64,000 nt of DNA from an uncultured cyanobacterium (GCA_963706595.1 OY970166.1:4192001-4256000); one strand, 5' to 3'. Positions 11,710 through 26,303 are shown, numbered from the stretch's first letter. Numbers and translations: made by a program. Notes: a model not told the origin generated them from the letters alone.

Positions 11710-14010
11710 TTGAGCGACTCTGACCAGGAGCAACCGCCATTGATCCCTGGTAATCATTACGAGAACAAGGAAGCCACAAATGAGAGCTTATCACCCACAA
11801 GGTTTATGAAAACAAGGCAGTTCTGGAATCAAATAAATAGTGTCTCATCGGGGATCACTAGTATATTTAGCAGCCGAGATCGACCGTTTTATCGTCGGCT
11901 TTGGTTTTGGGCAACGCTAGGTATAGGTAGTAGCTTATGTGGTACAGTTATTGGCCTGCACTACTTAATTAGCATCATCGATCAAAGCTTGCCAGATAAA
12001 TCGCAACTACAAGTAGTCCGCCGAGCCAAAACCCTGACCATCAAAGCCGTTGATGGCAGCATCCTACAACAACAAGGTGAAGCCACCAGAGAACGACTGA
12101 GGGTAGAGGAAATACCTGAGCAACTCAAACAAGCTTTTATCGCCTCAGAAGACCGAAGATTTCAAAATCATCATGGTATTGACCCACAAGGAATTCTCAG
12201 AGCAGCTCTGAAGAACTTGCGATCGCAGACTGTAGCAGAAGGTGGTAGTACCATCACCCAACAGCTAGCGCGAATTCTTTTCCTGCAACAAGAGCAGACA
12301 ATCTGGCGCAAACTCAAAGAAGTCCGTCTAGCTCATCAACTAGAACAAGAATTGACCAAAAACCAGATTATCGAGCGTTACCTAAATTTGGTATATTTAG
12401 GATCTGGAGCTTATGGTGTAGGAGATGCTGCCTGGGTCTACTTCAGTAAAACGGTAGATCAACTCACCCTAGCCGAAGCAGCAATGATTGCTGGATTAGC
12501 TCCCGCCCCAAGTTTATACTCCCCCATACAAAATCCCACAGTTGCTATACAGAGGCGAAACATAGTACTGCAACGGATGTATGAAGATGAATTAATTACA
12601 GCCGCCGAAAAGCAAGCCTCATCACAGGAAACCCTAAACCTCAACAGCAGCTTTCCCAAACGCCTAGAAGTAGAATCTCCCTACTTTGCCAGTTACGTCC
12701 TCCAAGAATTACCCAAATATGTTTCCCCCGAAATCCTCAAACAAGGGGGTTTAATAGTTGAAACTACCCTAAATCCCACTTGGCAGCAAGCCGCAGAAGC
12801 AGCAGTTGCCAAAACCTTGAAAAATCAAGGTCGCTGGCAGAACTTCACCCAAGCGTCTTTAGTCGCCATAGACCCCCGCAACGGTGAAATTCAGGCCATG
12901 GTGGGAGGAAAAGACTTTAGTAAAAATCAGTTTAATCGAGTTACCCAGGCACAACGTCAGCCAGGATCGACATTTAAGGGATTTCTCTATGCCGCAGCCA
13001 TAGCCACTGGTAAAAGCCCTTACGACACCTACCTAGATGCACCTTTTGTAGTCGATGGTTACGAACCACAAAACTTTGGGAAAACCTTTCGTGGCTCCAT
13101 GAGCATACGAAATGCCCTCACCCGTTCCACTAATGTAATTGCGGTGAAAGTTTTGCTTGATGTAGGCTTTAAGCCAATTATTAATACCGCCCACAACTTG
13201 GGAATTAAATCCGAACTGCAACCGACCTATTCTTTAGCTCTTGGTTCCCATGAAGTCAATTTACTGGAATTAACCAACGCTTATGGTAGCTTTGCTACGC
13301 AAGGATTATACATAGAAGCTCATGGCATTCGCCGCATCCTCAACCGTCAAGGACAAGTCATTTGGTCAAATGATTTCCAGCATCAACGGGTTCTTGACCC
13401 CACAAGTGCCGGCATTATGACCTGGATGCTACGCCAAGTAGTAGAAGCCGGTACTGGCGGTCCTGCACAATTAAAGAATAGGCCTGTAGCTGGGAAAACC
13501 GGAACTTCCGATGAAGCCCGCGACTTGTGGTTTATTGGCTACATTCCCCAAATAGTCACAGGCGTTTGGTTAGGCAATGATAACAACCGCCCCACTTCAG
13601 GAGACAGTGCTAGTGCTGCTTACACCTGGAGGGAATTTATGGCAAAAGCAGTAGAGGGAATGCCTATAGAAAAGTTTCCCGAAAGACCAAAACTCCAAGG
13701 TCGCGTAGGTAGCATTAAAGCACAGCCCATCAAACCGAAATCAATACAGCATCGTTCTCTTTCCACTACTGCAAATCAGCCAAGTCCCACCACAGCTAAC
13801 GTTACCCGCTCATCTAGAAGGTCTAGAAGACGTTCACAGCCACAGGTCACAAATACACCCGCCAGTGTATCTTCACCGAGACGGCGTAGAAGAGTACAAT
13901 CAAATCCTACGCCACCCGCCACAACTAAACGGCCTAGTAGTTCAATTCCTTCAACACCCCCACCTTCGTGGCGGGAAAGACTTAGACCCGGCTCAAATTC
14001 TTCGGATTGA
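11710..14010 (+). CDS. Class A penicillin-binding protein (transglycosylase/transpeptidase); true start uncertain
   Basis: SEDRRF..HHGID, GGSTITQQ, RKLKE; S..K (GSTFK), S.N, KTGT; basic disordered tail. Confidence 0.92.
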   Translation: MSDSDQEQPPLIPGNHYENKEATNESLSPTRFMKTRQFWNQINSVSSGITSIFSSRDRPFYRRLWFWATLGIGSSLCGTVIGLHYLISIIDQSLPDKSQLQVVRRAKTLTIKAVDGSILQQQGEATRERLRVEEIPEQLKQAFIASEDRRFQNHHGIDPQGILRAALKNLRSQTVAEGGSTITQQLARILFLQQEQTIWRKLKEVRLAHQLEQELTKNQIIERYLNLVYLGSGAYGVGDAAWVYFSKTVDQLTLAEAAMIAGLAPAPSLYSPIQNPTVAIQRRNIVLQRMYEDELITAAEKQASSQETLNLNSSFPKRLEVESPYFASYVLQELPKYVSPEILKQGGLIVETTLNPTWQQAAEAAVAKTLKNQGRWQNFTQASLVAIDPRNGEIQAMVGGKDFSKNQFNRVTQAQRQPGSTFKGFLYAAAIATGKSPYDTYLDAPFVVDGYEPQNFGKTFRGSMSIRNALTRSTNVIAVKVLLDVGFKPIINTAHNLGIKSELQPTYSLALGSHEVNLLELTNAYGSFATQGLYIEAHGIRRILNRQGQVIWSNDFQHQRVLDPTSAGIMTWMLRQVVEAGTGGPAQLKNRPVAGKTGTSDEARDLWFIGYIPQIVTGVWLGNDNNRPTSGDSASAAYTWREFMAKAVEGMPIEKFPERPKLQGRVGSIKAQPIKPKSIQHRSLSTTANQPSPTTANVTRSSRRSRRRSQPQVTNTPASVSSPRRRRRVQSNPTPPATTKRPSSSIPSTPPPSWRERLRPGSNSSD

Positions 14011-14017
14011 CTTGTTC

Positions 14018-14114
14018 GTAGGGTGTGTTATGCCGTAGGCTAACGCACCTTGAATTGCTGACATTGAAGCCGAAGTTTTAACGGTGCGTTGCGCTACGCG
14101 ACAACACACCCTAC
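14018..14114. repeat. GTAG/CTAC-bounded REP-like doublet
   Basis: GTAGGGTGTGTTA...ACAACACACCCTAC. Confidence 0.8.
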
Positions 14115-14183
14115 ATTAAAAGTTCTTAATATAACTTGAAATACTAGTGCCGACTTACTTACCTACTTAGATGAAATATAATA

Positions 14184-14320
14184 TATAGGACTCCTATCTG
14201 ATTTTTATTGGCGCGGCATAAAACAAAAAGGTTATTCCCCACTCCCCACTCCCCACTCCCTACGCAAATAAATATGGCTACGCCACGCTACGCAAACAGA
14301 AATCAAACCTGATTACTATA
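14184..14320. repeat. TATAG-bounded MITE-like element carrying an STRR array
   Basis: TATAGGACTCCTATCTGATTT...(CCCCACT)n...AAATCAAACCTGATTACTATA; related to 47259-47438. Confidence 0.65.
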
Positions 14321-14335
14321 TATTCGCAGTTCCCT

Positions 14336-15730
14336 TTAGTTTTTCTGAATTCCATAACACAAACGACCAATTAACCAATTATTATCTTCACTATTATTTG
14401 ATTTTCCAGACTGTAGTATTTCTGTTCTATTTTTCAATCCAATGAAAAACTCCTCTATACCCTGAGTCTTTGTCCCATCTTGTTCATTACTTCTTGCTTC
14501 CCAGTCCCACTCTTTCCACCAAATAGGCGTTTGTAACCTTTGAGCAAAAATATCAAATTTAAACTTATAAACACCCGATTCGGGAAACTTGTTAGGCTCA
14601 ATTAATGCCGAGAAATTTAATTTATTTTCCTGAATCTGCCAATCTTGTAATTGAAAAGCAGTATTAATATCTGAACTATTCATAACTTTGAATTTTTTTT
14701 CAAATTCATCAAATTTTTCCACATCGACTTTTGAATTAATCAAACTTTTGTCAGTATCAATAAGCAAACTATATTTAGCCGCATAAAAAGGGAGAGTATA
14801 ATTAATTGTCAAACTTTCCTCTTGTCGATTGTCTATTTGCAAAAGTTCACCAGGATAATTATCTTTAGTAACAGAAACTCCATTTTTAACCAAAGAAACA
14901 GGTCGGTTCACACCTGGAACTGTTATTGTTGGTAAAGTTTCTAGACTTGAGACACCATTAATTATATTTTCTGGATGAAAAATCATCAAATTACTATTAA
15001 CCATCAATTGTTGTGAATCATTCTTTTTTAAATAATCAAAATAATACTGAATATCACGATATGGACCAACAAACAGAACGTAAAATGGTCTGAATTTCTC
15101 CGGTTCTTTTCCAGAAGAATACGCAAAAGTTTTGAGTTTATTTAGCTCTTGTACATATACAGTCCCATTAAACTCACTTTTTATCGCCCAAATTCCCACT
15201 GCATAATCCTTTCTATCTAGGTTAAAATAAATATCTTGGATTTTTTTGGTTAGCCTAGTCACATCACCGCTATTTTGCTCTAAATCCGTAACTATAACCG
15301 TCATTCTTTCCTCATCTTTTTTGGGAGGAATAATCGCAGCATCAATGGGGCTAGATACAGCTTTAAATTTTGTATTACTACCATCATAAAATACAGGCGC
15401 TCCGGCATAACTATAATATTCACCTCCTGTAATTTTTTGGTTTGGATTATCCAGACGATAGTATTCAACTGGTAATTTACCTATTAATTCAAAGGCATTT
15501 CTAATACTATTTAAAGCTTTCACATAATTAGTCTTTCCATCTCTCACATACCCCAGCATTGAGCCACTACCATCAACATAAATTCCTACATTGAGATTGT
15601 CAGATTTAGAAAGATTACTTTGATTGAATGCCGGAATTTCACAGGTTAATTTATCCTTAACTGCCACTGGATTGCAAGCTGTTAAAACAGTTATTACAAA
15701 TCCTAAAAAAAACCATCTAAATTGCATCAT
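14336..15730 (-). CDS. Predicted lipoprotein with vWA/MIDAS-like domain
   Basis: ATG at 15730 with AGGAA upstream; lipobox VLTAC; IYVDGSGSM (DxSxS) and VIVTD. Confidence 0.75.
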   Translation of the reverse strand: MMQFRWFFLGFVITVLTACNPVAVKDKLTCEIPAFNQSNLSKSDNLNVGIYVDGSGSMLGYVRDGKTNYVKALNSIRNAFELIGKLPVEYYRLDNPNQKITGGEYYSYAGAPVFYDGSNTKFKAVSSPIDAAIIPPKKDEERMTVIVTDLEQNSGDVTRLTKKIQDIYFNLDRKDYAVGIWAIKSEFNGTVYVQELNKLKTFAYSSGKEPEKFRPFYVLFVGPYRDIQYYFDYLKKNDSQQLMVNSNLMIFHPENIINGVSSLETLPTITVPGVNRPVSLVKNGVSVTKDNYPGELLQIDNRQEESLTINYTLPFYAAKYSLLIDTDKSLINSKVDVEKFDEFEKKFKVMNSSDINTAFQLQDWQIQENKLNFSALIEPNKFPESGVYKFKFDIFAQRLQTPIWWKEWDWEARSNEQDGTKTQGIEEFFIGLKNRTEILQSGKSNNSEDNNWLIGRLCYGIQKN

Positions 15731-16095
15731 TTTGTTTCCTGAAGAAATTGAGAACTTATGAATCAGAAGGGACAAGCAAGAAACCAGGAGAAAAAACCCC
15801 TAAATAAATTCAGAGTTTTCCCACGAAAATGCCTTTTTGCTATCACTATGTGTCCTGAAAATTTTTCTTAACTTTATTAATAATTAAATTTTAAAGGATT
15901 TAAGCCTGTGGAAAGAAGTCAAAAAATATTTCTTTCCTTTAGCTCCTGCCTTGATTGGGTAAAGATTTTTAAGTAAATGTACGGTAGTTTTAATTCTTAT
16001 AAAAAAAGGATGATAAAAGTATATCAAAAAATACTAGCGATAGCTTTAAGCACGATGTTAAGACTCTGGATACAGAACAACAATAAGGAGAGCTA

Positions 16096-16569
16096 ATGAA
16101 GCCGTGGGAAATAATTAGGATCATCATTTTTAACGTTATTGGTGCTGCACTAATGTTTTTGGGGCAGCGTCTCATCTATGAAAATCAAATCATACCCATT
16201 CAAAAAGTCCCCCTTGATACTTGGCTTGGTGCTGACTATACCACAGCCGCACTGATCATGTTTGGAGTTTGTCTGTTGTCCACGATGATTTGGTGTCTCA
16301 TTGCCGCAGTCAGTAAGTTTACTGATAGTAGAAATGCTGGGAGTTGGATGTTGTTTTGGTGGTTGTTAGGACTTTTACCCATAGCCAGCATTGGTTTTAC
16401 AGTGTTTTACATTAACCGCAGCGACGAAGCCCAGTTTTCGCTGATGGGATTTTTCCTTTTAGATGCTATCTGGCTGTATTGGTTCAGCACCGCCACTAGT
16501 TCTCCTGAAGCCGTGAAATATATTCCACCAGGAGCTTTTTTTATCCGTCATAAGCTGATGGGAGATTAA
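16096..16569 (+). CDS. Hypothetical integral membrane protein (about 4 TM helices)
   Basis: AAGGAG RBS; four hydrophobic segments; 3 bp before the tubulin-like gene. Confidence 0.8.
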   Translation: MKPWEIIRIIIFNVIGAALMFLGQRLIYENQIIPIQKVPLDTWLGADYTTAALIMFGVCLLSTMIWCLIAAVSKFTDSRNAGSWMLFWWLLGLLPIASIGFTVFYINRSDEAQFSLMGFFLLDAIWLYWFSTATSSPEAVKYIPPGAFFIRHKLMGD

Positions 16570-16572
16570 TAA

Positions 16573-18072
16573 ATGTCAATTTATGTGATTGGAATTGGTG
16601 GTACTGGCGCTAAGTGCATTGAAGCTGTAATTCAATTAGCATCCATAGGACTTTTTGGCGAAGAAACCCTGAATTTATTGTTTGTTGATGCTGATGAAAA
16701 TAATGGTAATTTAGAACGGGCATTAAAAAGCCTAAAAATTTATCAAGATTGCCAAAATTTAGGTCTTGCTGATAAACATCCCTGGATGAAAACCAAAATT
16801 GAGTCCTTTGGTTTATGGTCGCCTTTTGCCAACACCAGCGTCAATAAAAACCTTAGCTCATTCTTTGAATATAATATTCTCAAAGATGATGAATCAGCAT
16901 TAGGAAATTTATTTGATGTTCTTTATACTTCAGAAGAACGCGATGCTAATTTAGACGTGGGTTTTCGTGGTCGCCCTGCTATTGGTGCGGCGGTGATGAG
17001 TCAGGTAAAACTTGATTCTTTAGACCATGACTCATGGGGACAACTAATGAGTCAACTGCAAAAAGACACTGGAGGAGGTAAACGCCCCAAAGTATTTTTA
17101 TGTGGCTCAATTTTTGGTGGTACAGGGGCTTCAGGATTACCAACTATTGGCCGTTTAATTCATAATAAGTTGGAAACTCTGCAAATTAGAACTAAAGTTG
17201 ATATTGGTTGCTTATTTGTTTTACCTTATTTTGGTTTTACTCCTACTTTGGGAGAAAATGCAGAAACAGTCTATGCTCGTTCTGAACAATTTTTATTAAA
17301 CACAGAAGCAGCACTGCGTTATTATGGCAGTCAAGCCCAAGACAGTTTTGACACTGTATATCTGTTGGGAAATCAAAACTTATCTCCAGTTAAAGTTTTT
17401 AGTGTTGGTAAAAATACTCAACGCAATGACCCCCATTTTATTGAACTCTATGCGGCATTAGCAGCACGGCAATTTTTATTGAATACAACTTCCGAACAAA
17501 AAAAAGTGGTGTTGATGAATCGGGAGAATTTGAGAAATCTGATTTGGAAAGATATTCCCGACCAAAAAGCAGTTAACTCAGAGTTAGTTAATGCCACTCG
17601 TTTTGCTTTTATGTGGTTATCTAATATTGCCCCAGCGTTAGCGGAAGCTAAGAAAATTGGTGTGAAAAGCTTCCAAAAAGGTAATAGTTGGTTTGTGAAA
17701 TTCTTTCCTGACCGCATTGTTTTTCGCAACAATCAAAGACAAGAAATAGATTTTAATGATCCAGAACAGCAAAATGCTATAGAAACAATTACTGTCTGGT
17801 GTCAAGATTATTTACGTTGGCTGTCATTAGTTCATCAATGTGCTGGTGAAAATATTCAATTATTCAATGCTCAACATTTCAGTAATAGTAAGCTGAATCC
17901 TCAGCATTTATCAGATTTAATTAGTGGCTTAGGTGACAGTCGAGATCAAAACCAGAAATCTCAGGACACAGTACAAAAACTCAAAGAACGTTTGCATCCT
18001 CCAGCTATCAGTCTGCCCAATCAAGGCATATTGGGACTGTCTAAAGCTTTATATCTTGTTTGTCGGTTGTAG
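16573..18072 (+). CDS. Divergent tubulin/FtsZ-superfamily GTPase (Tubulin_2/FtsZ-like type)
   Basis: YVIGIGGTGAK, FVDAD, GFRGRPAIG, SIFGGTGASG (variant of the GGGTGSG signature), LPYF. Confidence 0.85.
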   Translation: MSIYVIGIGGTGAKCIEAVIQLASIGLFGEETLNLLFVDADENNGNLERALKSLKIYQDCQNLGLADKHPWMKTKIESFGLWSPFANTSVNKNLSSFFEYNILKDDESALGNLFDVLYTSEERDANLDVGFRGRPAIGAAVMSQVKLDSLDHDSWGQLMSQLQKDTGGGKRPKVFLCGSIFGGTGASGLPTIGRLIHNKLETLQIRTKVDIGCLFVLPYFGFTPTLGENAETVYARSEQFLLNTEAALRYYGSQAQDSFDTVYLLGNQNLSPVKVFSVGKNTQRNDPHFIELYAALAARQFLLNTTSEQKKVVLMNRENLRNLIWKDIPDQKAVNSELVNATRFAFMWLSNIAPALAEAKKIGVKSFQKGNSWFVKFFPDRIVFRNNQRQEIDFNDPEQQNAIETITVWCQDYLRWLSLVHQCAGENIQLFNAQHFSNSKLNPQHLSDLISGLGDSRDQNQKSQDTVQKLKERLHPPAISLPNQGILGLSKALYLVCRL

Positions 18073-18086
18073 AAGGAAAGTTAATT

Positions 18087-21000
18087 ATGACCAGTGCATA
18101 TACTACCAATCAATCTGCTTTGTTGCTACCCAAACTCAAAGATGATTGTGATGTCAAGTCTGGGAATCCCGGGATTTGGGATTCTCAAGCCCCAAAAGCT
18201 TTTAATGATGTCGCCTCCAGCTTAGATTACAAAGCACCGGGAGAAGTTAAAAGTGTTAGTTCTGTTCCCACGATTTGGGCGCGTCCTTTATCAATGGAAA
18301 TGGCATTACACAATGATGCTTATCCGATTCGGGAACAAATGATCATTCAATGGCAAGGAATGTTAGCGGCTTTAGCATTAGCAGAAGTACGCGGTTTTCC
18401 GATTAAAGCGGAACTTTTGGAACTGGGAACGAAAAAGGATAGTCACGTTTTTGCCCGTTCTCTGTATGAACTTTTACCTGATCCAGTTAACACCCTTTAT
18501 ACGTTCAATAATAATAAACATCCTTGGGAAGATTTATATGTCTTTACTTGGAAGAATCAACCTATAGGGATGAGTTCTCCTAGTACCTTGGTTGTACCTT
18601 CAGAAGAAGGCATCTGGGACGGTTTACCTTGGTGGGATAGTAATATATTACAGTTGCGATCGCCTCATAATTACCTTAACGACACAGAAAAAGCCCAACT
18701 AGCATTTTGGTTAGATAACCTCCGCAGAGAAATTAGAAGATATAACGGTCAAAGTAAAGCAATTGACCGCATTGTTGGCTTAGTCAATGGCTTTATTAAC
18801 AGCTTAGGTGTGACAACTACACCTAACTTTCAATTTAGTGATAATCCTGCCTACTTTGAAGTAGAAATCAACCGAGGCGCGTTAACTGCACTCAATTTAC
18901 CTGTTAAAGTTGAGTCTAGGGAATCTAATGTGAGGATTGTTCCCAGTTTAGTTAAACCAAATGTTCCCCCACTACTGATAATTGATCCCGCCATTGCGAC
19001 CGCTTGGAATGAACCACCGCAGAACATTTGCGTTTATGAAGGTAAAAATTTAGCAGCTTTTCGTCCTGAAGATTTAGAAACCTGGAACCGGAGTAGAAAA
19101 GTAATCTGTCTGGAATCGAAAGATTTATTTTTACCAGACTTGAAATTTATTGATCAAGAAGGAATTTTACCAGGGGCTTTACTTCCCGAAGGAACTCAAA
19201 GCTTGGTCTTTAAAAATAGGAATATTACCCCTTTAATTCCTTTGAATCCGATTTTGTTAAATTACTTCACCCCAGAAGATTTAACCAAAAAGATTAAACT
19301 CCAACTGGTTAATAATGGTGCTGGCGGTTCACAAGTTCGGGTAAGTTTAACCTTACCTTTATATGGTGTTAAAGGTGGTAAAGTACCGCAAAACTTCTTT
19401 TTAGTTAAAGACTATCCTTTGCTAGAAGAAAACATCATTTACCAAGTACCTGTTTTAGAGGTATGGCCTGACTTCCGTGCTGAAGGTTGGAAAGAATATT
19501 ACGGCTTTTACTACGATGCTGAATATGGGGAAGAAACATTTCAAGTCAGTTTCCCCAATGCGAAAGATATTCATATTTTTAAAGAACGTAAAGGTTCTTA
19601 TCAAACAGTACAGCTAGAGGAATTTCCAGCATTTATTGAGTGTAAAGACATTTATACCAATACTGTTGGATTAATCCTATTAGCTACTCCAGAAGAAATT
19701 TCTCCAGTCGGAAACTGGGTAGTTGGTGTTGACTTTGGAACTTCTTTTACTAACGTATATGTCAACAAAAATGATAAAGTTACAGAAAGACTAAATCTAG
19801 AAAATCTGCATCGTAAAATTACTTACGTGTTGGTGGAAACTAGATTTCCAGTATTGTTTGAATACTTTATTCCCGAAAGCTTTATTCCCATAGATAAACC
19901 TTTCCCCATGTCTACTGTATTAACAAGGAAAGGCAGCAAAAATGCCAATGAAGACCAATTAAATCCAATTTTTGATGGTCGGCTGTATATTCCTGCTCGT
20001 AATCGCTTTGAGCCTCAACAGACATGGATTAGAACCAATCTTAAATGGGACACTATTAACTTAACCGATAATCAACTTTTTCTCAAACACCTGGCGCTAC
20101 ATATTACTGCGATCGCAGCTAAAAATGGCGTAAAAAATATTCAATGGTCTTTATCATTTCCATCTGCTTTCTCAGCAAAACAAGAACAAAATTATGCCAA
20201 GAATTGGCAGAAAATAACCAAAGAAATAGAAGCTAAGTCAAGTATTAAACACCAGAGTCCCGCCAAAGATGACCCCACTTATTTCCGTACAGAAAGTTTA
20301 GCATTTGCTCAATACTTTGCTGAATACGAAGATGAAAATCTTGTCAATACAACTTGTATTGATATGGGTGGTGGAACATCAGATATTTCCATTTGGCAGG
20401 ATGATGAGCTAGTTCATCAATGTTCAGTTGAATTAGCAGGTCGTGATTTATTCTCTCAATTCATTAAAATTAATCTTAATTTTCTCAAGAAGTTAGATAT
20501 CAATCCTGATGAGTGGAAAACACTGAACAAAGAAGAAGCTTTCAATGCCAAACTCGATGTATGGATGCGTCTAGAAGCCGCTAATTGGTTAGAGAAAAAA
20601 CGAGATTTATTAGAAGAAGATAAAGACTTTCAAGGACTGCTGCGTTTAATGGCAATAGGTGTATCTGGCTTATACTTTTATGTTGGTCAGATTCTTTCTG
20701 TTCTACACAAAGAGGATAAATATACTCTTGATGAAATTACTCCAGTGTATATAGGTGGTAATGGTTCGCGTTTGTTGCATTGGTTGGCTGAAGGTGGTGA
20801 ATTTGATAAAAATTCAGAAATTAATGGTTTATTAAGTCGAATGATGAGTGTAGCTTCTGGTTTTACTGATACAGAAGAACTCACACGCCTAAGTCAAAAT
20901 CCCAAAGATGAAGCTGCTTGCGGTCTAGTTTTGAAAGATAAAAAACTCAAAGGGTTAAATAAAAAGGAAAAAGATCATGTAATTGCCGGCGAAGATTGTG

Positions 21001-21362
21001 AAATTGATGGTCAAATCTTTAGTTGGCAAGATCGGTTACAAATTAAAGCAAAAACAATTTCTAAATATCAAATTCCTGAACTAACTCAGCTAAGATTATT
21101 TCTTGATGCTTTCCATGCTAGTTTAGAAGACTTAGGAATTGATGGCATTAAACCTCTAGAAGGTTATGAATTTGAAAAAGAATATCCAGATGATCCAGAC
21201 CCTGACTATAATCAAAAACTATGGAAAGCTACAGCTAGGGAGTTAAAAGATTCTTTAAATTCTATTAAAGGTGATGTTGAAAATATCCGTGAAGAACCAC
21301 CATTCATTCTAGCGTTAAAAGCATTGCTCAAAGTTTTAGCTAAGAATTGGGCTGGTAAATAA
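18087..21362 (+). CDS. Large protein with C-terminal actin/Hsp70-fold ATPase domain
   Basis: ATG at 18087 after AAGGAA; VGVDFGTSFT (phosphate 1), LSFPSAF, TESLAFA (connect), IDMGGGTSD (phosphate 2), IGGNGSR (adenosine), PKDEAACG. Confidence 0.8.
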   Translation: MTSAYTTNQSALLLPKLKDDCDVKSGNPGIWDSQAPKAFNDVASSLDYKAPGEVKSVSSVPTIWARPLSMEMALHNDAYPIREQMIIQWQGMLAALALAEVRGFPIKAELLELGTKKDSHVFARSLYELLPDPVNTLYTFNNNKHPWEDLYVFTWKNQPIGMSSPSTLVVPSEEGIWDGLPWWDSNILQLRSPHNYLNDTEKAQLAFWLDNLRREIRRYNGQSKAIDRIVGLVNGFINSLGVTTTPNFQFSDNPAYFEVEINRGALTALNLPVKVESRESNVRIVPSLVKPNVPPLLIIDPAIATAWNEPPQNICVYEGKNLAAFRPEDLETWNRSRKVICLESKDLFLPDLKFIDQEGILPGALLPEGTQSLVFKNRNITPLIPLNPILLNYFTPEDLTKKIKLQLVNNGAGGSQVRVSLTLPLYGVKGGKVPQNFFLVKDYPLLEENIIYQVPVLEVWPDFRAEGWKEYYGFYYDAEYGEETFQVSFPNAKDIHIFKERKGSYQTVQLEEFPAFIECKDIYTNTVGLILLATPEEISPVGNWVVGVDFGTSFTNVYVNKNDKVTERLNLENLHRKITYVLVETRFPVLFEYFIPESFIPIDKPFPMSTVLTRKGSKNANEDQLNPIFDGRLYIPARNRFEPQQTWIRTNLKWDTINLTDNQLFLKHLALHITAIAAKNGVKNIQWSLSFPSAFSAKQEQNYAKNWQKITKEIEAKSSIKHQSPAKDDPTYFRTESLAFAQYFAEYEDENLVNTTCIDMGGGTSDISIWQDDELVHQCSVELAGRDLFSQFIKINLNFLKKLDINPDEWKTLNKEEAFNAKLDVWMRLEAANWLEKKRDLLEEDKDFQGLLRLMAIGVSGLYFYVGQILSVLHKEDKYTLDEITPVYIGGNGSRLLHWLAEGGEFDKNSEINGLLSRMMSVASGFTDTEELTRLSQNPKDEAACGLVLKDKKLKGLNKKEKDHVIAGEDCEIDGQIFSWQDRLQIKAKTISKYQIPELTQLRLFLDAFHASLEDLGIDGIKPLEGYEFEKEYPDDPDPDYNQKLWKATARELKDSLNSIKGDVENIREEPPFILALKALLKVLAKNWAGK

Positions 21363-21446
21363 AACACTTGCTTTAAAAGTGGGCGATATATTCATATTCG
21401 CCCAAATTATATTAAAGTCAGTAAATCAACTATAAGGAGGTTAAAA

Positions 21447-22259
21447 ATGGAAAAAAATTCTAATAAATGTCCAGTTTGTCACACTGAATTTAGTGAGCAG
21501 GAAAAAAGAGAAATAGTAATAAACAATATAAATAAAATAAATAACTTTAAGATAAATTGTGAAAAACTAAACGAAGAAAATAAAAACTTGAGAATTCACA
21601 TAGAGGAATTAAACCAAAAAATACAAGAACTTCAAGAACAATTAATCAAGTATGACAGTCCTGATGATTCAGTAGTTCAATATAATGATGTAGAAATACA
21701 AGAACTTCTACAGAAATTAAAACATCCACTGGTTATTGAGGCTATTAAAAACATAATTCATAATCATGTTGAAAGCCAAGATAATTCAATATCTAATCAA
21801 GTTGGAGAAGATCTCAAAAATCAAAATGTAGATGAAATAATAACTGATGATGTAGAAAATAATTCTCCTGAGTCTGATACAGCTATAACATTACACGAAC
21901 AGGAATTAGTCAAGAATTATCAAGATTCAAATTTCGATTTTCAGCAATTTATAATTAGGGTCTCTGAACCAGAGCAAAGTCAAACTAATCGTTGGGGTGG
22001 TAGTAAAGAAGCAACAAGTTTTAAATATAATCGCCAAGGTAATTATTGGATAGTCAATATGGATAATGGTTTGTATATCGTGCCTCAAAAAAAGTTTAAG
22101 ATTAATGAATATAGCCAAGAAACATTAACCTCAACTTTTGATTGTCGTAACTATCAACCAGGAAAATCAGAAGATTTTGTTTTAATAAAACCTGGGAAAG
22201 TAATTGCTATAAGCGCAGAGGAATGGCAATTAGTAGAACGTGGTATCCTACACTTTTAA
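21447..22259 (+). CDS. Coiled-coil protein with one copy of the locus-specific GNYW/KP/ERG domain
   Basis: AAGGAGG RBS; CPVC at N-terminus, heptad region, C-terminal GNYWIV...LIKPGKV...WQLVERGILHF. Confidence 0.8.
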   Translation: MEKNSNKCPVCHTEFSEQEKREIVINNINKINNFKINCEKLNEENKNLRIHIEELNQKIQELQEQLIKYDSPDDSVVQYNDVEIQELLQKLKHPLVIEAIKNIIHNHVESQDNSISNQVGEDLKNQNVDEIITDDVENNSPESDTAITLHEQELVKNYQDSNFDFQQFIIRVSEPEQSQTNRWGGSKEATSFKYNRQGNYWIVNMDNGLYIVPQKKFKINEYSQETLTSTFDCRNYQPGKSEDFVLIKPGKVIAISAEEWQLVERGILHF

Positions 22260-22269
22260 TCATTACATT

Positions 22270-23718
22270 ATGTTAAAAAGCAATTACATCAAATCTCTCC
22301 CTGTAGTTTTACTAATATCTCTGATGGTTGGGTGTGAACGTCCTCCCTTGGATTCCCAAAATAGTAATCCTACAGTTAAAATCAGTACATCTCCAATTGT
22401 TCAAGAGAAACCAGATAATTTAAATGCAGTTTTATCTGCATACAGTGAATTTAAGAACTCAATCACTAAGCTTAATTCTGAACTGAAAAATTTTGTAGTA
22501 GGGAATTTACAGCCAGACCAAGTAAATTTTAGCGAACCTAACAAAAAGCTAATTAAATTACAGGAATCTATTTTAGCTTTAAAAATACAGCTTAATGGCA
22601 TAAGTAATAATTCCGATATTAATCAATCTATTGATGATATAAATACAACAATTACAGATATTCAGAGAGTAATTAAACCAATAGAAAAAGGATTAAATTC
22701 TGCTGTTGTGCGTGAAGTTCAACAATTAATAGACCTGCAAAAAAATACAGGAATAGCTCCTACAGGTATTTTTAAAACCACTACACAGGAACAACTCGAA
22801 AAATTCCTTGTGCTAAGACTTGGAAATTTAGACCAGCAATTTAAAGAAATTGATAACCTTATTCAAAAAACAGAAAATATTTCCATTAATAACAATATTA
22901 TTAATCCTGATAGTCCAATTATCGCAAATTCTACGGCGGAAAATCAGGACGAAATTCTGATATCTAAATCAGCACTTGATAATATTTATAACCGGCTGAA
23001 TCTGACTGTGACTATTACCAGTTGTGGGTTTATTATCCTAGCTGGATTATTCGCATGGTTGATGTATAGGCTAAATCTCGTCGAAACCAGACTAAAATCT
23101 AGTAATTCCTCAAAAAATGAAACTCAATTAGGGAATATTAAAAATTATATTGAGAGCGAATTTACACAGATTGAACAGTATTTACAAAGTTTAGATACTA
23201 GGTTCAAAAATTTAGAAATATCTTCTCAAAATTATAGTTCACCAAATTATAAAGGTGAAAATAATCAATCCTATACTTCACAAAGTAACACAGCAACAAA
23301 TCATCCACAACCTAAAGTAGTAAATATTTCTCATTCTCAATCATCTACATCGAATAAAGAAACTCAGATAGTGACATTATATAATAATCAGCCTCGTTCT
23401 CTATCTGCAAATGCAATTACTGTGGCAGAAACTGATCACACAGTTGAACAACGTCGTATGGGTAGAACTGTTGCACCTATTTTAGAGGAAAATCAGCTAG
23501 GTAATTATTGGATAATTCAAGAAGGTCATAACGAATATCTTGTACCTAAAGGAAGTATTAAAATTAATGAATATAACTATGAAACAATATCAAGCTGTTT
23601 TGAATGTTTAGCATATAATCCAAATTATTCCAGTAATTTTATATTGTTAAAACTAGCAATAGTTTCATCTATAGGACAAAATTGGCAATTAATAGAACCA
23701 GGTGAATTACAATTTTAA
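22270..23718 (+). CDS. Predicted lipoprotein with helical region, internal TM helix and C-terminal GNYW domain
   Basis: ATG at 22270; lipobox LMVGC; TM ITSCGFIILAGLFAWLMY; GNYWII...WQLIEPGELQF. Confidence 0.8.
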   Translation: MLKSNYIKSLPVVLLISLMVGCERPPLDSQNSNPTVKISTSPIVQEKPDNLNAVLSAYSEFKNSITKLNSELKNFVVGNLQPDQVNFSEPNKKLIKLQESILALKIQLNGISNNSDINQSIDDINTTITDIQRVIKPIEKGLNSAVVREVQQLIDLQKNTGIAPTGIFKTTTQEQLEKFLVLRLGNLDQQFKEIDNLIQKTENISINNNIINPDSPIIANSTAENQDEILISKSALDNIYNRLNLTVTITSCGFIILAGLFAWLMYRLNLVETRLKSSNSSKNETQLGNIKNYIESEFTQIEQYLQSLDTRFKNLEISSQNYSSPNYKGENNQSYTSQSNTATNHPQPKVVNISHSQSSTSNKETQIVTLYNNQPRSLSANAITVAETDHTVEQRRMGRTVAPILEENQLGNYWIIQEGHNEYLVPKGSIKINEYNYETISSCFECLAYNPNYSSNFILLKLAIVSSIGQNWQLIEPGELQF

Positions 23719-23732
23719 TCAACACAAATTAC

Positions 23733-24848
23733 ATGGAAATGCAAAATATTGAAAAGGTGGATTTTTCGGAAAATGAATTAATTATATTATATAATTATAT
23801 TCCCCGTCTAATTGAAAAATCTGCAATATTAGTTAATTTATCTCCTAGTTACTATACAAACGGTAAGCAGGAAATATTGCTGACAGAAGATACAAAAGGA
23901 AATTACTGGGTTATTGCAACTGATTATGATATTTATTGGCTGTTTCCCATTGCGACACTCAAGGGTAAATTTAACCACCATGTCAATGAAGCATTAAATC
24001 TATTATTTGAGTTTAAAAATTACGAAAATTCAGAAAATCGTGAATTTACGCTGAAAAAACCAGCTAAAGTTTATCCTGCGATTAGTCGGGAAGGTTGGAT
24101 ACTAGAATCAACAGGTTTTCTGGATTTTACTAATTTACGGTTATTATCTATTGAAACATCAAATGGCAACAGCAATAAAATACCATTAATACAGGAAAAT
24201 TCAACTTTACAGCTATCACAAAAAGAATTTGAGGAATATAGAAGTAAAGTTGAGGCGGAAATTAATCTATTAAAAATGCAAGTTCAACAGTTGACGGAAG
24301 CGCGAGAACAATTTAAAACCGAAATTAAAGAAATTAAGGATAGGTATTTTAGTTTAGAAACTCAACTACCAGCGACAGCAGAACACAATAGTTCTAGTAA
24401 TCATCAGGTTGAGAATACTCAAGAGGTAAAAATATCAAATCAGGATAATTCAATTAATATATCTACAGAATTAAATCTCACTTCTGAAGAATTACGAATT
24501 GTTGAAACATATAATTATAATCCTGTGATAATTTCACAGCAAGCGAAGCAAGTTTCTGAAACTACAACTAGTATTGAAAAGCGTAGTCAGGGTATTAATG
24601 ATACAGTTGTTTTAGAAAAACAATCTCAAGGTCATTACTGGTTGGTTGGTAAAGAGACATTATATTTAATGCCTAGACGAGGTTTCAAGATAAATCGCTC
24701 AACTGTAGATACTTTTAAAGCTTTATTTCAATTTCGAGGAAGTAAAGTTCCAAGTAAGTTTAAGTTAATCAAACCTGCTCAGGTAGCTATGATAATTAAT
24801 TCACAAACTTGGCAACTAACCGAGCGGGGAATTATTGAATTTGAATAA
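23733..24848 (+). CDS. Protein with two GNYW domains separated by a coiled coil
   Basis: GNYWVI...KKPAKV...WILESTGFLDF and GHYWLV...IKPAQV...WQLTERGIIEF. Confidence 0.82.
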   Translation: MEMQNIEKVDFSENELIILYNYIPRLIEKSAILVNLSPSYYTNGKQEILLTEDTKGNYWVIATDYDIYWLFPIATLKGKFNHHVNEALNLLFEFKNYENSENREFTLKKPAKVYPAISREGWILESTGFLDFTNLRLLSIETSNGNSNKIPLIQENSTLQLSQKEFEEYRSKVEAEINLLKMQVQQLTEAREQFKTEIKEIKDRYFSLETQLPATAEHNSSSNHQVENTQEVKISNQDNSINISTELNLTSEELRIVETYNYNPVIISQQAKQVSETTTSIEKRSQGINDTVVLEKQSQGHYWLVGKETLYLMPRRGFKINRSTVDTFKALFQFRGSKVPSKFKLIKPAQVAMIINSQTWQLTERGIIEFE

Positions 24849-25191
24849 GCTTAAGTAAGTTGTTGAGAAAAATTTAATGTATATAAAAAGATATTAGCTG
24901 TTGCACTGTAAATTGGTGAAGGTGCGTTGCGCTTCGCGACAACACACCCTACTTAATTTGTCTTTAGATTGTCAGAAGTATTCGTGCTTACCTACTTATT
25001 TATATGAAGTATAATTTACGAAGTCTCAAACCTAAAACAGAAAAGCTGTTAGATAAACTCAAGGAACTGAAACTTCAACTGCAAGATTTATTTTTACCTA
25101 AAATAGGGGGGAAATGTGTACACAACCTATATTTATAGTAGAATTAAAGGCTTTATTGACTATTTTATCACAAAGGTGGGATTAATAACTA

Positions 25192-25926
25192 ATGTCTACA
25201 ATAAAGTTTGATGAACTTGTCCGCAGTTTTAATAATTTGAGACAACTTTGTTATCAGAATTTTGCCGTTAGAATAACTAATATAGAAGATTATCTATCTA
25301 CACTTACTGACCGAGTTATAGAGGGAAAGGTGATAGTTAATGGTAATTTTGAGGCAGAAAAAGTTAGCCGTGTGAATATTTCTGAGTCTCAGTTGGTGCA
25401 AGTTTATAATGATGTTCCTCAAGTTTTAGGGAAAAATTCTGTTGTTTTGGAATTAACTGCTAAAAGTTATCGTAATCTTCAACATGGTGAACCAATTTTC
25501 CTGGAAAATGATGAGAATGGTAAATATTGGATGATTACAACTGATATAGATCGGTTTTTTGTTGTGCCAAGTATGAATGTTAAATCAAATATACACAAAT
25601 TAAGAACTGTCAAAATGTTGTTTGATTTCTCTGGTGATGAGCCGTCAGCAGATAGTGATTTTATATTAATTGAACCTGCAAAAGTTTCTAGTCAAGCCAG
25701 TGGTAAGGAATGGAAACTAAAAGAAAGGGGGATTTTGGAATTTAAGAATGCTTTTTTGCCGAATCAAAATTTTCAAACAAATGTGGAAGATTCTAATTTA
25801 GAAATAAAAAAAATTGCTCAACAGTTAGATGATTTAAAAATTCAGTTCTATGAGTCGCAGCAAGAAAGAATAAAATTACAGTTGCAAGTTGAAGAAATAG
25901 CGAATAAGTTAAAATGGTTAGATTAA
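25192..25926 (+). CDS. Protein with one GNYW domain and C-terminal coiled coil
   Basis: GKYWMI...IEPAKV...WKLKERGILEF followed by heptad repeats. Confidence 0.8.
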   Translation: MSTIKFDELVRSFNNLRQLCYQNFAVRITNIEDYLSTLTDRVIEGKVIVNGNFEAEKVSRVNISESQLVQVYNDVPQVLGKNSVVLELTAKSYRNLQHGEPIFLENDENGKYWMITTDIDRFFVVPSMNVKSNIHKLRTVKMLFDFSGDEPSADSDFILIEPAKVSSQASGKEWKLKERGILEFKNAFLPNQNFQTNVEDSNLEIKKIAQQLDDLKIQFYESQQERIKLQLQVEEIANKLKWLD

Positions 25927-25942
25927 TTTAGTTTTAATAAGC

Positions 25943-26044
25943 TATAGCGGTTATCAGTTAAGTGAGATGAACCCCACCCCCAACCCCCTCCCCGCAAGCG
26001 AGGAGGGGGCTATGATGTACTTCATTGAAGTGGATACCGCTATA
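25943..26044. mobile_element. ~102-bp MITE-like element
   Basis: TATAGCGGT...ACCGCTATA terminal inverted repeat; near-identical copy at 49441..49546. Confidence 0.8.
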
Positions 26045-26303
26045 ATCTCTATTTAATATCAATGTCAATGTCGCATGAATGAATATTTGTAATGGAGAAG
26101 GTCGCCAAGTGAAGAGGTTCAGAAATGATTTAGGACTGCTATAGGTTAGGTTGAGCAATGCAAAACCCAAAGTTGGCGAGGATGTTGGATTTCCCAAAGC
26201 CTCAACTCAACCTACTTTAATTATAAGTTGTAATTTAAATATGCGTTTTCGGTGAACTGTCGTAGAGAGCTTGTATACAATGTTTCTAGATTCGGTGGCA
26301 TTT

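Follow-up and report, generated by a model that had tools for sequence, protein, structure and literature searches.

A mobile cyanobacterial gene module pairs a tubulin-like GTPase with an actin/Hsp70-like ATPase and predicted envelope proteins

The nucleotide-driven proteins of the cytoskeleton fall into two great families, tubulin-like and actin-like. What might a bacterium gain from encoding one of each side by side, together with membrane proteins and a lipoprotein? This question is raised by a block of eight genes in a 64,000-nucleotide (nt) stretch of DNA from an uncultured cyanobacterium (GCA_963706595.1 OY970166.1:4192001-4256000), referred to here as the window. A sequence-only reading of this DNA had proposed that the block encodes a single machine linking the two cytoskeletal folds to the cell envelope. 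All eight open reading frames (ORFs) are present where that reading had placed them, one on the minus strand (a lipoprotein) and seven on the plus strand, and its gaps and motifs (IGIGGTG, GFRGRPAIG, SIFGGTGASG and VDGSGSM, with a DxSxS like that of a metal ion-dependent adhesion site, MIDAS) were all confirmed in the translations. The plus-strand genes encode a protein with four predicted transmembrane (TM) segments, a tubulin-like GTPase (Tub), a large ATPase (Act) and four paralogues (CC1-CC4). Our study leads us to favour, with slightly better than even confidence, an accessory trans-envelope nucleoside triphosphatase (NTPase) switch built on Tub and Act and carried as a self-contained mobile module; the architecture of that module, as proposed, we consider probable.

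The arrangement of the block is far from accidental. A scan of one genome per species yielded 80 loci, and the counts given here are over the loci with enough DNA to judge. By record title, the loci are cyanobacterial, except for one Chloroflexaceae metagenome-assembled genome (MAG) contig and two 'uncultured bacterium' MAG contigs. Act follows Tub directly in 68/68 testable loci and overlaps its end in eight, while the 4-TM gene lies directly upstream of Tub in 76 of the 80; two others have it in a displaced position, and no such gene was found in the remaining two. Downstream of Act, a gene for a protein with the 125-residue domain shared by CC1-CC4 occurs in 62 of 64 loci, and 54 of 68 testable loci have the lipoprotein gene, always divergently oriented in this set. 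More divergent versions, whose Act proteins are 29-36% identical to that of the window, keep the gene order, with the lipoprotein gene co-directional and directly upstream. The flanking genes differ between loci and no further family recurs among them. Each of the five families is single-copy in the genome of the window and occurs nowhere outside the block. The maintenance of gene order in 80 loci, down to 29-36% Act identity, is far beyond chance, and the proposal that these genes co-occur as one module across cyanobacteria is borne out by this neighbourhood survey.

The paralogue array is a fast-changing part of the module. We counted 261 copies of the 125-residue domain in 207 ORFs of 64 loci, with 1-6 genes per locus and 1-4 copies per protein; the membrane-spanning type, represented by CC2, occurs in 57 of the 64 loci and the CxxC type in 48. 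Identity to the nearest relative is 58-63% for the paralogues versus 75-86% for the core proteins. Some genomes hold two divergent copies of the whole module (L007 and L021; L012 and L057; G392, on two contigs), with Tub proteins about 80% and about 58-60% identical to the window Tub, and sequence comparison thus indicates that at least two subfamilies coexist. The Chloroflexaceae contig (L064, 4.1 kb), whose lipoprotein fragment and genes for the 4-TM protein, Tub and Act are 63-68% identical to the window module, is probably a mis-binned cyanobacterial contig rather than an occurrence in Chloroflexota. ORF clusters seen in 11-24 loci were considered as extra partners and rejected, being antisense ORFs of about 110 amino acids (aa) inside the Tub, Act or 4-TM genes that we took to be shadow ORFs.

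Tub scores above the Pfam Tubulin_2 (PF13809) cut-off (32.3 bits versus 27, E 8.3e-8), over residues 165-320 only; in a six-frame scan of the genome with PF13809 it reached 24.3 bits, under the cut-off of 27. We found 1394 relatives, most of which carry PF13809 in their precomputed annotation. The nucleotide-binding loop motifs T1 (GIGGTGAK), T3 (GFRGRPAIG) and T4 (FGGTGASG) are invariant or nearly so in 16 Tub sequences, and those of T3 and T4 align with the canonical FtsZ that is encoded elsewhere in the same genome, the overall hhalign probability of that alignment being just 0.4%. A PDB sequence search with Tub gave no match, and among 104 pattern matches in viral contigs none encodes a Tub relative. 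On these sequence criteria, Tub can be classed as a divergent member of the tubulin/FtsZ superfamily, in Pfam Tubulin_2. The tubulin/FtsZ-like call of the sequence-only reading therefore holds, but Tub is not one of the FtsZl1 proteins that it brought up: Tub has 499 aa and no coiled-coil match, whereas FtsZl1 proteins are about 1000 aa long and have other neighbours. The C-terminus of Tub bears a conserved hydrophobic and basic stretch (consensus GLAKALYxLCRL) behind a poorly conserved linker; judged from its sequence, this stretch might be a helix that targets the membrane or a peptide that binds a partner.

The fold of Act was recognised through a structural model built from 67 orthologues, with a mean predicted local distance difference test (pLDDT) of 85.4 and a predicted template modelling score of 0.73. 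The model matched 391 PDB chains in Foldseek (E<=1e-3, probability 1.00), the top ones being MamK, BiP, mortalin, DnaK and MreB. VIA returned 123 chains at Z>=8, the best being MreB (Z 18.4, root-mean-square deviation 3.8, 287 aligned residues, model residues 543-950), and further scores were 16.5 for BeeR, 16.3 for FtsA, 16.2 for ParM, 16.1 for Ssz1 and 15.7 for PilM. The nucleotide motifs of this fold are conserved among the 67 sequences: in phosphate-1 (VGVDFGTSFTN) D, F, G, T and S are invariant, in phosphate-2 (CIDxGGGTSDISIW) C, D, G, G, D, I, S and W, and in the adenosine motif (VYIGGNGS) G and N, with the remaining positions conserved in at least 90%. Sequence profiles gave sub-threshold matches only: in Pfam, FtsA (17.8 bits, cut-off 31.8) and MreB_Mbl (14.3, cut-off 27) both stayed below their cut-offs and HSP70 was unlisted, and the best E value in a PDB profile search was 0.2. 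The model thus places in residues 541-955 a two-lobed, RNase-H-like ATPase of the actin/Hsp70/sugar kinase (ASKHA) class, in agreement with the actin/Hsp70 fold suspected earlier. This domain is preceded by a conserved, unstructured N-terminal arm (residues 1-68) and followed by a helical C-terminus; for residues 56-540, the matches of the whole-model fold searches were taken up by the ATPase domain.

Some Act genes are interrupted. The homologue of Trichodesmium erythraeum IMS101 (L027, 11712-14987) has one in-frame stop, and single stops were also seen in three sampled genomes (G274, TAG; G059, TAG; G296, TAA), which could reflect module decay in some lineages or sequencing error. At another locus (L096 13437-15638, in the region of L008), there is a second, N-terminally truncated Act paralogue of 734 aa, corresponding to Act positions 342-1084. 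It lies between the third and fourth paralogue genes, the site of the repeat-bearing 343-bp gap in the window.

Do Tub and Act act together? We predicted the structure of Tub with Act residues 1-400 in three runs alongside three controls, with our own alignments. The pair scored 0.88, 0.89 and 0.88 and the top control 0.00, with 260-272 contacts, a partner pLDDT of 80 and at least 93% of the contacts common to the runs. The score mark that we used is attained by 116/157 solved complexes and by 2/215 mismatched pairs, a calibration that is only rough here because the alignments were our own. Recall of a known structure is unlikely, because PDB sequence searches gave no similar solved complex. 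On the Act side, the predicted interface is formed by arm residues 10-68, which are unstructured in the monomer model, and by residues 109-174; on the Tub side it covers residues 98-144, 180-198, 217-268 and 290-331 and includes the T3 and T4 loops. Invariant positions are enriched in it, with 42/87 versus 87/412 positions in Tub (Fisher p 5e-7) and 11/79 versus 18/321 in Act (p 0.014), some enrichment being expected since part of the interface consists of GTP-binding loops that are conserved for other reasons.

The two proteins also occur as one polypeptide. A search of longer proteins gave 14 of 1341-1680 aa, with natural Tub-Act fusions of 1554-1680 aa. In a fusion of 1595 aa from Planktothrix pseudagardhii, residues 1-445 correspond to Tub (36% identity, E 2e-79) and residues 505-1577 to Act (35% identity, E 4e-172); another fusion cluster includes a Bacteroidales MAG protein. 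Gene adjacency, complex prediction and fusions are three independent lines that agree, and Tub and Act apparently form one complex. From the models we infer that the Act arm may cap the nucleotide face of Tub and control its GTP state.

CC1-CC4 are paralogous through a domain of about 125 residues, of which CC3 has two copies. CC1 has an N-terminal, zinc-hook-like CxxC motif (Rad50_zn_hook, E 1.9e-4, below the cut-off), a coiled-coil-like region and the domain at its C-terminus. CC2 begins with a signal peptide containing a lipobox-like LMVGC and continues with a periplasmic coiled-coil-like region, one TM helix (ORF residues 257-275), a cytoplasmic linker and the C-terminal domain. In CC3 a coiled-coil-like region lies between the two domains, and CC4 has a central domain and a coiled-coil-like C-terminus. 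The earlier description of four paralogous coiled-coil proteins is thus correct as to paralogy, whereas the coiled-coil character was seen in sub-threshold matches to coiled-coil families only. A model of the domain from 125 copies has a pLDDT of 87.5. Foldseek gave no PDB match at E<=1e-3, the best VIA scores were in the noise range (Z 2.7 for RelE/HigB/barnase-like proteins, 2.1-2.3 for GrpE), the best hit of a PDB sequence search was a designed scaffold (E 0.063), and the nearest ESM Atlas clusters are unnamed. The model therefore shows no recognised known fold, and we do not claim a new one. The residues Y, V, Y, P, F, A, W, G and F are nearly invariant in it, so the domain resembles a binding module more than an enzyme.

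Of the hydrophobic segments of the 4-TM protein, three are strong and one is weaker, and its C-terminal tail (LYW..TATSSPG..Y.PPGA) is conserved. The signal peptide of the lipoprotein ends in a canonical lipobox (LTAC), read as a pattern, whose Cys column is nearly invariant in 58 orthologues. The conserved positions in these orthologues are C31, D54, S58, D150 and C459, with two invariant Cys, and the MIDAS-like motif VDG[ST]xSM...VTD, a motif match only, is likewise conserved; the C-terminal half comprises about 230 residues. The family is large: at E<=1e-3 it has 1558 representatives, and 360 remain at E<=1e-30. The von Willebrand factor A (vWA) fold that had been suggested for the lipoprotein could not be substantiated beyond the DxSxS...TD motif. 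A PDB profile search gave nothing at E<=10, an hhalign comparison with nine true vWA domains from the genome of the window gave 17 aligned columns at a probability of 10%, and 35 distant relatives include no Pfam vWA family, their clusters being without names. In the ESM Atlas, the clusters nearest to the lipoprotein hold Bacteroidota proteins without names. A subtilase-like ORF of about 500-520 aa adjoins the lipoprotein gene on its upstream side in three Nostocales loci that are related to one another (L005, L006 and L010), which is probably shared local synteny.

The block is mobile between genomes. In a genome of the same genus (G318), the penicillin-binding protein (PBP) and GGDEF-EAL genes that border the block lie about 75 bp apart, everything from ~14004 to 26295 of the window being absent; homology stops at ~14003 and restarts at ~26296. 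The block is likewise missing from another genome of the genus. Act was found in 33/401 sampled genomes of the phylum, i.e. in 24/155 genera, in 9/45 in the same family and in 0/2 other species of the genus. In Gloeothece verrucosa PCC 7822, the whole module is carried by the 47.5-kb mobilisable plasmid Cy782204, which encodes its own ParA and on which all module genes are annotated as hypothetical except for a 'tubulin-like domain-containing protein'. More distant copies are found on Picosynechococcus plasmids.

A related cluster occurs in Prevotella sp. oral taxon 299, in the order lipoprotein, 147-aa multi-TM protein, Tub homologue (E 2e-29), Act homologue (E 1e-20), coiled-coil-like protein and zinc-ribbon plus TM protein. 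Its lipoprotein is homologous to that of the window (hhalign probability 84%, E 7e-6, 177 columns). The Prevotella proteins found in corresponding places, namely a 4-TM, a 186-aa and a 280-aa protein, showed no homology by hhalign to the 4-TM or 125-residue-domain profiles from cyanobacteria. McrC and McrB are encoded just upstream of the cluster (L104 3567-6372), RmuC and a MatE transporter downstream. The Prevotella Act has 785 relatives at E<=1e-5, the named ones from Prevotella or Hoylesella and all of them hypothetical and without a Pfam family; single protein clusters hold hundreds of metagenomic members.

Within the window (Table 1), the spacings between the plus-strand genes are 3, 14, 84, 10, 14 and 343 bp when Act and CC2 are read from their ATG codons. 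G+C content is 0.29-0.41 in the block versus 0.41-0.47 in the flanks. Its neighbours are housekeeping genes, as had been noted: HPPK, a class A PBP (11710-14010) and an FHA-GAF-GGDEF-EAL protein (26304-28940, minus strand), the block lying between the last two. A promoter scan found 41 candidates versus 47.6 expected from shuffles, and thus none above the shuffled level. The block had also been described as repeat-bounded. Several short dispersed repeat families do lie at both borders and in the gap between CC3 and CC4; however, the 32-nt repeat core (GGTGCGTTGCGC...) has 65-88 copies genome-wide, with many matches in two genomes of the same genus, and this number rules the border repeat out as a marker of the block.

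Table 1. Features of the block and its borders, in window coordinates.
Feature	Position	Strand	Remarks
Left-border dispersed repeats	14015-14114 and 14180-14323		inverted pair 14018-14054 / 14078-14114
Lipoprotein gene	14336-15775	-	479-aa ORF; likely start ATG 15730
Divergent intergenic region, lipoprotein gene/4-TM gene	15776-16095		presumed promoters
4-TM gene	16096-16569	+	157 aa
Tub gene (tubulin-like)	16573-18072	+	499 aa
Act gene (large ATPase)	18087-21362	+	1091 aa from ATG 18087; ORF opens TTG 18060
CC1 gene	21447-22259	+	paralogue
CC2 gene	22270-23718	+	paralogue; ATG 22270; ORF opens GTG 22240
CC3 gene	23733-24848	+	paralogue
Dispersed repeat in 343-bp CC3-CC4 gap	24911-24999		core 24919-24952
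CC4 gene	25192-25926	+	paralogue
Right-border dispersed repeats	25943-26044 and 26094-26143		

How does the module compare with known systems? In cell division, FtsZ and FtsA form a pair at the inner membrane that is linked to bitopic coiled-coil proteins and periplasmic partners, FtsA binding the C-terminal peptide of FtsZ. Our pair resembles it in that a tubulin-fold GTPase is predicted to be bound by an actin-fold ATPase, FtsA being itself among the structural matches of Act (Z 16.3). It differs in the long N-terminal arm of Act predicted to lie over the Tub GTPase domain, and in being an accessory, mobile module in a genome that has its own FtsZ elsewhere; Act, moreover, falls below the Pfam FtsA cut-off. 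In the PilM-PilN-PilO-PilP alignment complex of type IV pili, PilM docks to bitopic proteins whose coiled coils are periplasmic, and a lipoprotein is also present. The block has a comparable set, with a cytoplasmic actin-fold protein (PilM, Z 15.7 versus Act), bitopic coiled-coil-like proteins and a lipoprotein, but no pilus genes, and no sequence homology was detected, so that the likeness is one of layout only.

Divergent tubulin-like proteins have been placed beside vWA proteins before. In the sections of Makarova and Koonin (2010; PMC2875224) that deal with them, FtsZl1 proteins are about 900-1200 aa long and have a coiled-coil domain, and their function is predicted only; the cyanobacterial ones have a COG2304 vWA protein, family B7 and a MotB/OmpA-like protein as neighbours, kinases and a GTPase being listed as well, and membrane remodelling is proposed for the FtsZl1-vWA clusters. 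The only Trichodesmium entry given there is the 1090-aa Tery_1707, and the Trichodesmium homologue of Tub is not listed. As far as those sections describe them, our module shares with these clusters a non-division tubulin-superfamily protein beside a secreted or membrane DxSxS protein and other membrane proteins, and differs from them in that Tub is 499 aa long and its partners are an ASKHA ATPase of 1091 aa, the 4-TM protein and a domain family that is new. In the part of Santana-Molina et al. (2023) concerned with them, Tubulin_2 proteins are used solely as an outgroup. The conflict systems centred on GTPases, in the portions of Kaur, Burroughs, Iyer and Aravind (2020; PMC7159879) that bear on this comparison, include HSP70 with GrpE and are described as a 'constant core plus variable partners', with tubulin themes in Firmicutes and Actinobacteria, separate from the HSP70 themes. 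The DO-GTPase/GAP1 systems of that account resemble our module: both combine an unchanging NTPase core with partners that vary and evolve fast, both include tubulin, vWA-like and Hsp70-fold proteins, and both are associated with membranes; the DO-GTPase and GAP1 genes are absent from the neighbourhood of the block, and no P-loop GTPase gene lies beside the five families. CorMR of Anabaena, a structural match to Act, was rejected as a parallel, being ParMR-derived and, by what its description covers, of unrelated layout.

No characterised system matches the module. PADLOC-DB 2.0.0 (library from 2023) was negative, and full-text literature searches returned no description of this architecture. 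The PADLOC matches within the block are weak and of coiled-coil type: CC1 to LmuB (E 1.7e-5) and CC3 to DruG (E 0.0044). We also ran PADLOC on 113 of 154 selected ORFs from the flanks of the loci. Of these, 15 match at E<=1e-10, mostly to generic enzyme models, and four ORFs in three loci have full-length defence matches, namely MzaA-like and AbiLi (L004), PbeC (L008) and a type I methyltransferase (L060).

The reading that we favour is the following. The core of the module would be Tub, the divergent tubulin/FtsZ-type GTPase, in complex with Act, whose C-terminal half is the actin/Hsp70-type ATPase and whose N-terminal arm is predicted to wrap the face of Tub that bears the T3 and T4 loops. 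Since the predicted arm lies over the nucleotide-loop face, Act might read or control the GTP state of Tub, and free Tub polymerisation would be prevented. The 4-TM protein, as its gene coupling suggests, would hold the pair at the cytoplasmic membrane, and so would the expandable coiled-coil-like paralogues, with their shared, seemingly non-enzymatic 125-residue domain as a docking unit. The periplasmic side would consist, by topology predicted from sequence, of the membrane-crossing paralogue and the lipoprotein with its metal-site-like DxSxS...TD motif. The NTP-driven switch or assembly would then couple an envelope event to the cytoplasm. We think of its role as accessory, in conflict, defence or stress rather than in housekeeping morphogenesis, because of the patchy, mobile distribution of the module and its fast-changing paralogue array. 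A role in conflict or stress is put forward tentatively, at less than even confidence, and one in envelope remodelling seems to us unlikely, if by no great measure.

Several points weigh against this scheme. The trans-envelope machine of the sequence-only reading stands as regards the core, which is predicted to bind and is fused in nature, and as regards the CC2-type protein, which spans the membrane and has a periplasmic part; the 4-TM protein, the paralogue domain and the lipoprotein would join that core through links that are purely inferred. The loop motifs assigned on Tub are T1, T3 and T4, with no T7 equivalent among them, and the lipoprotein has no vWA match in Pfam. The rough calibration of the complex score and the conservation to be expected of GTP-binding loops temper the case for the interface. 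As for defence, 6/8 block proteins have no PADLOC-DB 2.0.0 match, and none of the core proteins matches a family there; defence genes flank the module only in the three scanned loci mentioned above and in the Prevotella locus, a count that has no baseline and from which we claim no enrichment.

Among other explanations, an accessory cytoskeletal or membrane-remodelling machine, in which Tub and/or Act filaments on the inner membrane, organised by coiled coils, shape the envelope (vesicles, septa or adhesion sites) without any link to conflict, strikes us as unlikely but worth serious attention. The FtsZ-FtsA pair is a precedent for a tubulin-fold and an actin-fold protein at the membrane, bitopic coiled-coil proteins and lipoproteins are typical of divisomes and pilus alignment complexes, and among the proteins that Act resembles best in structure are MreB, BeeR, FtsA, ParM and MamK, which form filaments; the lack of a PADLOC match and the housekeeping flanks in the window would also fit. 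Such a machine is harder to reconcile with a module found in just 33/401 genomes of the phylum and in 0/2 other species of the genus, plasmid-borne in several strains and present in a genome with a canonical FtsZ elsewhere, and the predicted Act arm over the nucleotide face of Tub would hinder a canonical protofilament. We regard as improbable a chaperone-type system, in which an Hsp70-like Act folds, assembles or disassembles Tub or the paralogues and the shared domain is a client or a co-chaperone such as an exchange factor. Hsp70 nucleotide-binding domains are indeed among the top structural matches of Act, its phosphate-2 motif (DxGGGTxD) is of the Hsp70/MreB/FtsA type, GrpE beta-domains are among the weak matches of the 125-residue domain, and HSP70 occurs with GrpE in GTPase-centred conflict systems in the relevant portions of Kaur et al. 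(2020; PMC7159879). However, actin-like proteins score equal to or above Hsp70 for Act, Pfam HSP70 gave no match and no Hsp70 substrate-binding domain was identified in Act, and the GrpE scores (Z 2.1-2.3) are at noise level.

The presence of the module on plasmids, the ParM-type proteins among the matches of Act and the weak resemblance of the CC1 N-terminus to the Rad50 zinc hook and to LmuB might also suggest that, like the TubZ and ParM motors, the module segregates DNA or plasmids, or that it handles DNA, with the zinc-hook and coiled-coil proteins as SMC/Rad50-like DNA tethers. This is very improbable in our view: the module-bearing plasmid Cy782204 has its own ParA, a partition system has no place for a lipoprotein, a 4-TM protein and a bitopic periplasmic protein, and the Pfam scan gave no DNA-binding domain, the hook matches being below curated cut-offs. 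That the genes are independent neighbours brought together by chance is hardly credible. The lipoprotein gene is divergent here and was not found in 14/68 testable loci, and CC4 is set apart by the repeat-holding 343-bp gap; but the order holds across 80 loci and at identities as low as 29%, the divergent versions have a co-directional lipoprotein gene, the core proteins are naturally fused, and the block is present or absent as a unit while its flanks vary by locus.

If the trans-envelope switch built on Tub and Act is the correct explanation, a conserved single complex of a tubulin-like and an actin-like protein would be a new use of two folds. A bolder version, which we offer only tentatively, is that an obligate Tub-Act heterodimer represents an unrecognised class of machine, in which the Act arm replaces the next tubulin subunit and the GTP and ATP cycles are coupled in a membrane-tethered, trans-envelope complex, with docking domains of new fold in an expandable set, and which spreads between Cyanobacteria and Bacteroidota, including Prevotella of animal microbiomes. 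The module also brings with it a well-modelled 125-residue domain without a structural match and a large unannotated lipoprotein family (1558 representatives). Picosynechococcus strains are genetically tractable, and since some carriers are plasmid-bearing strains of this genus, the question looks open to deletion experiments. The carriers include bloom-forming and marine cyanobacteria, plasmids and Prevotella, and the role of the module could matter, in highly abundant bacteria, for phage-host ecology or for envelope biology.

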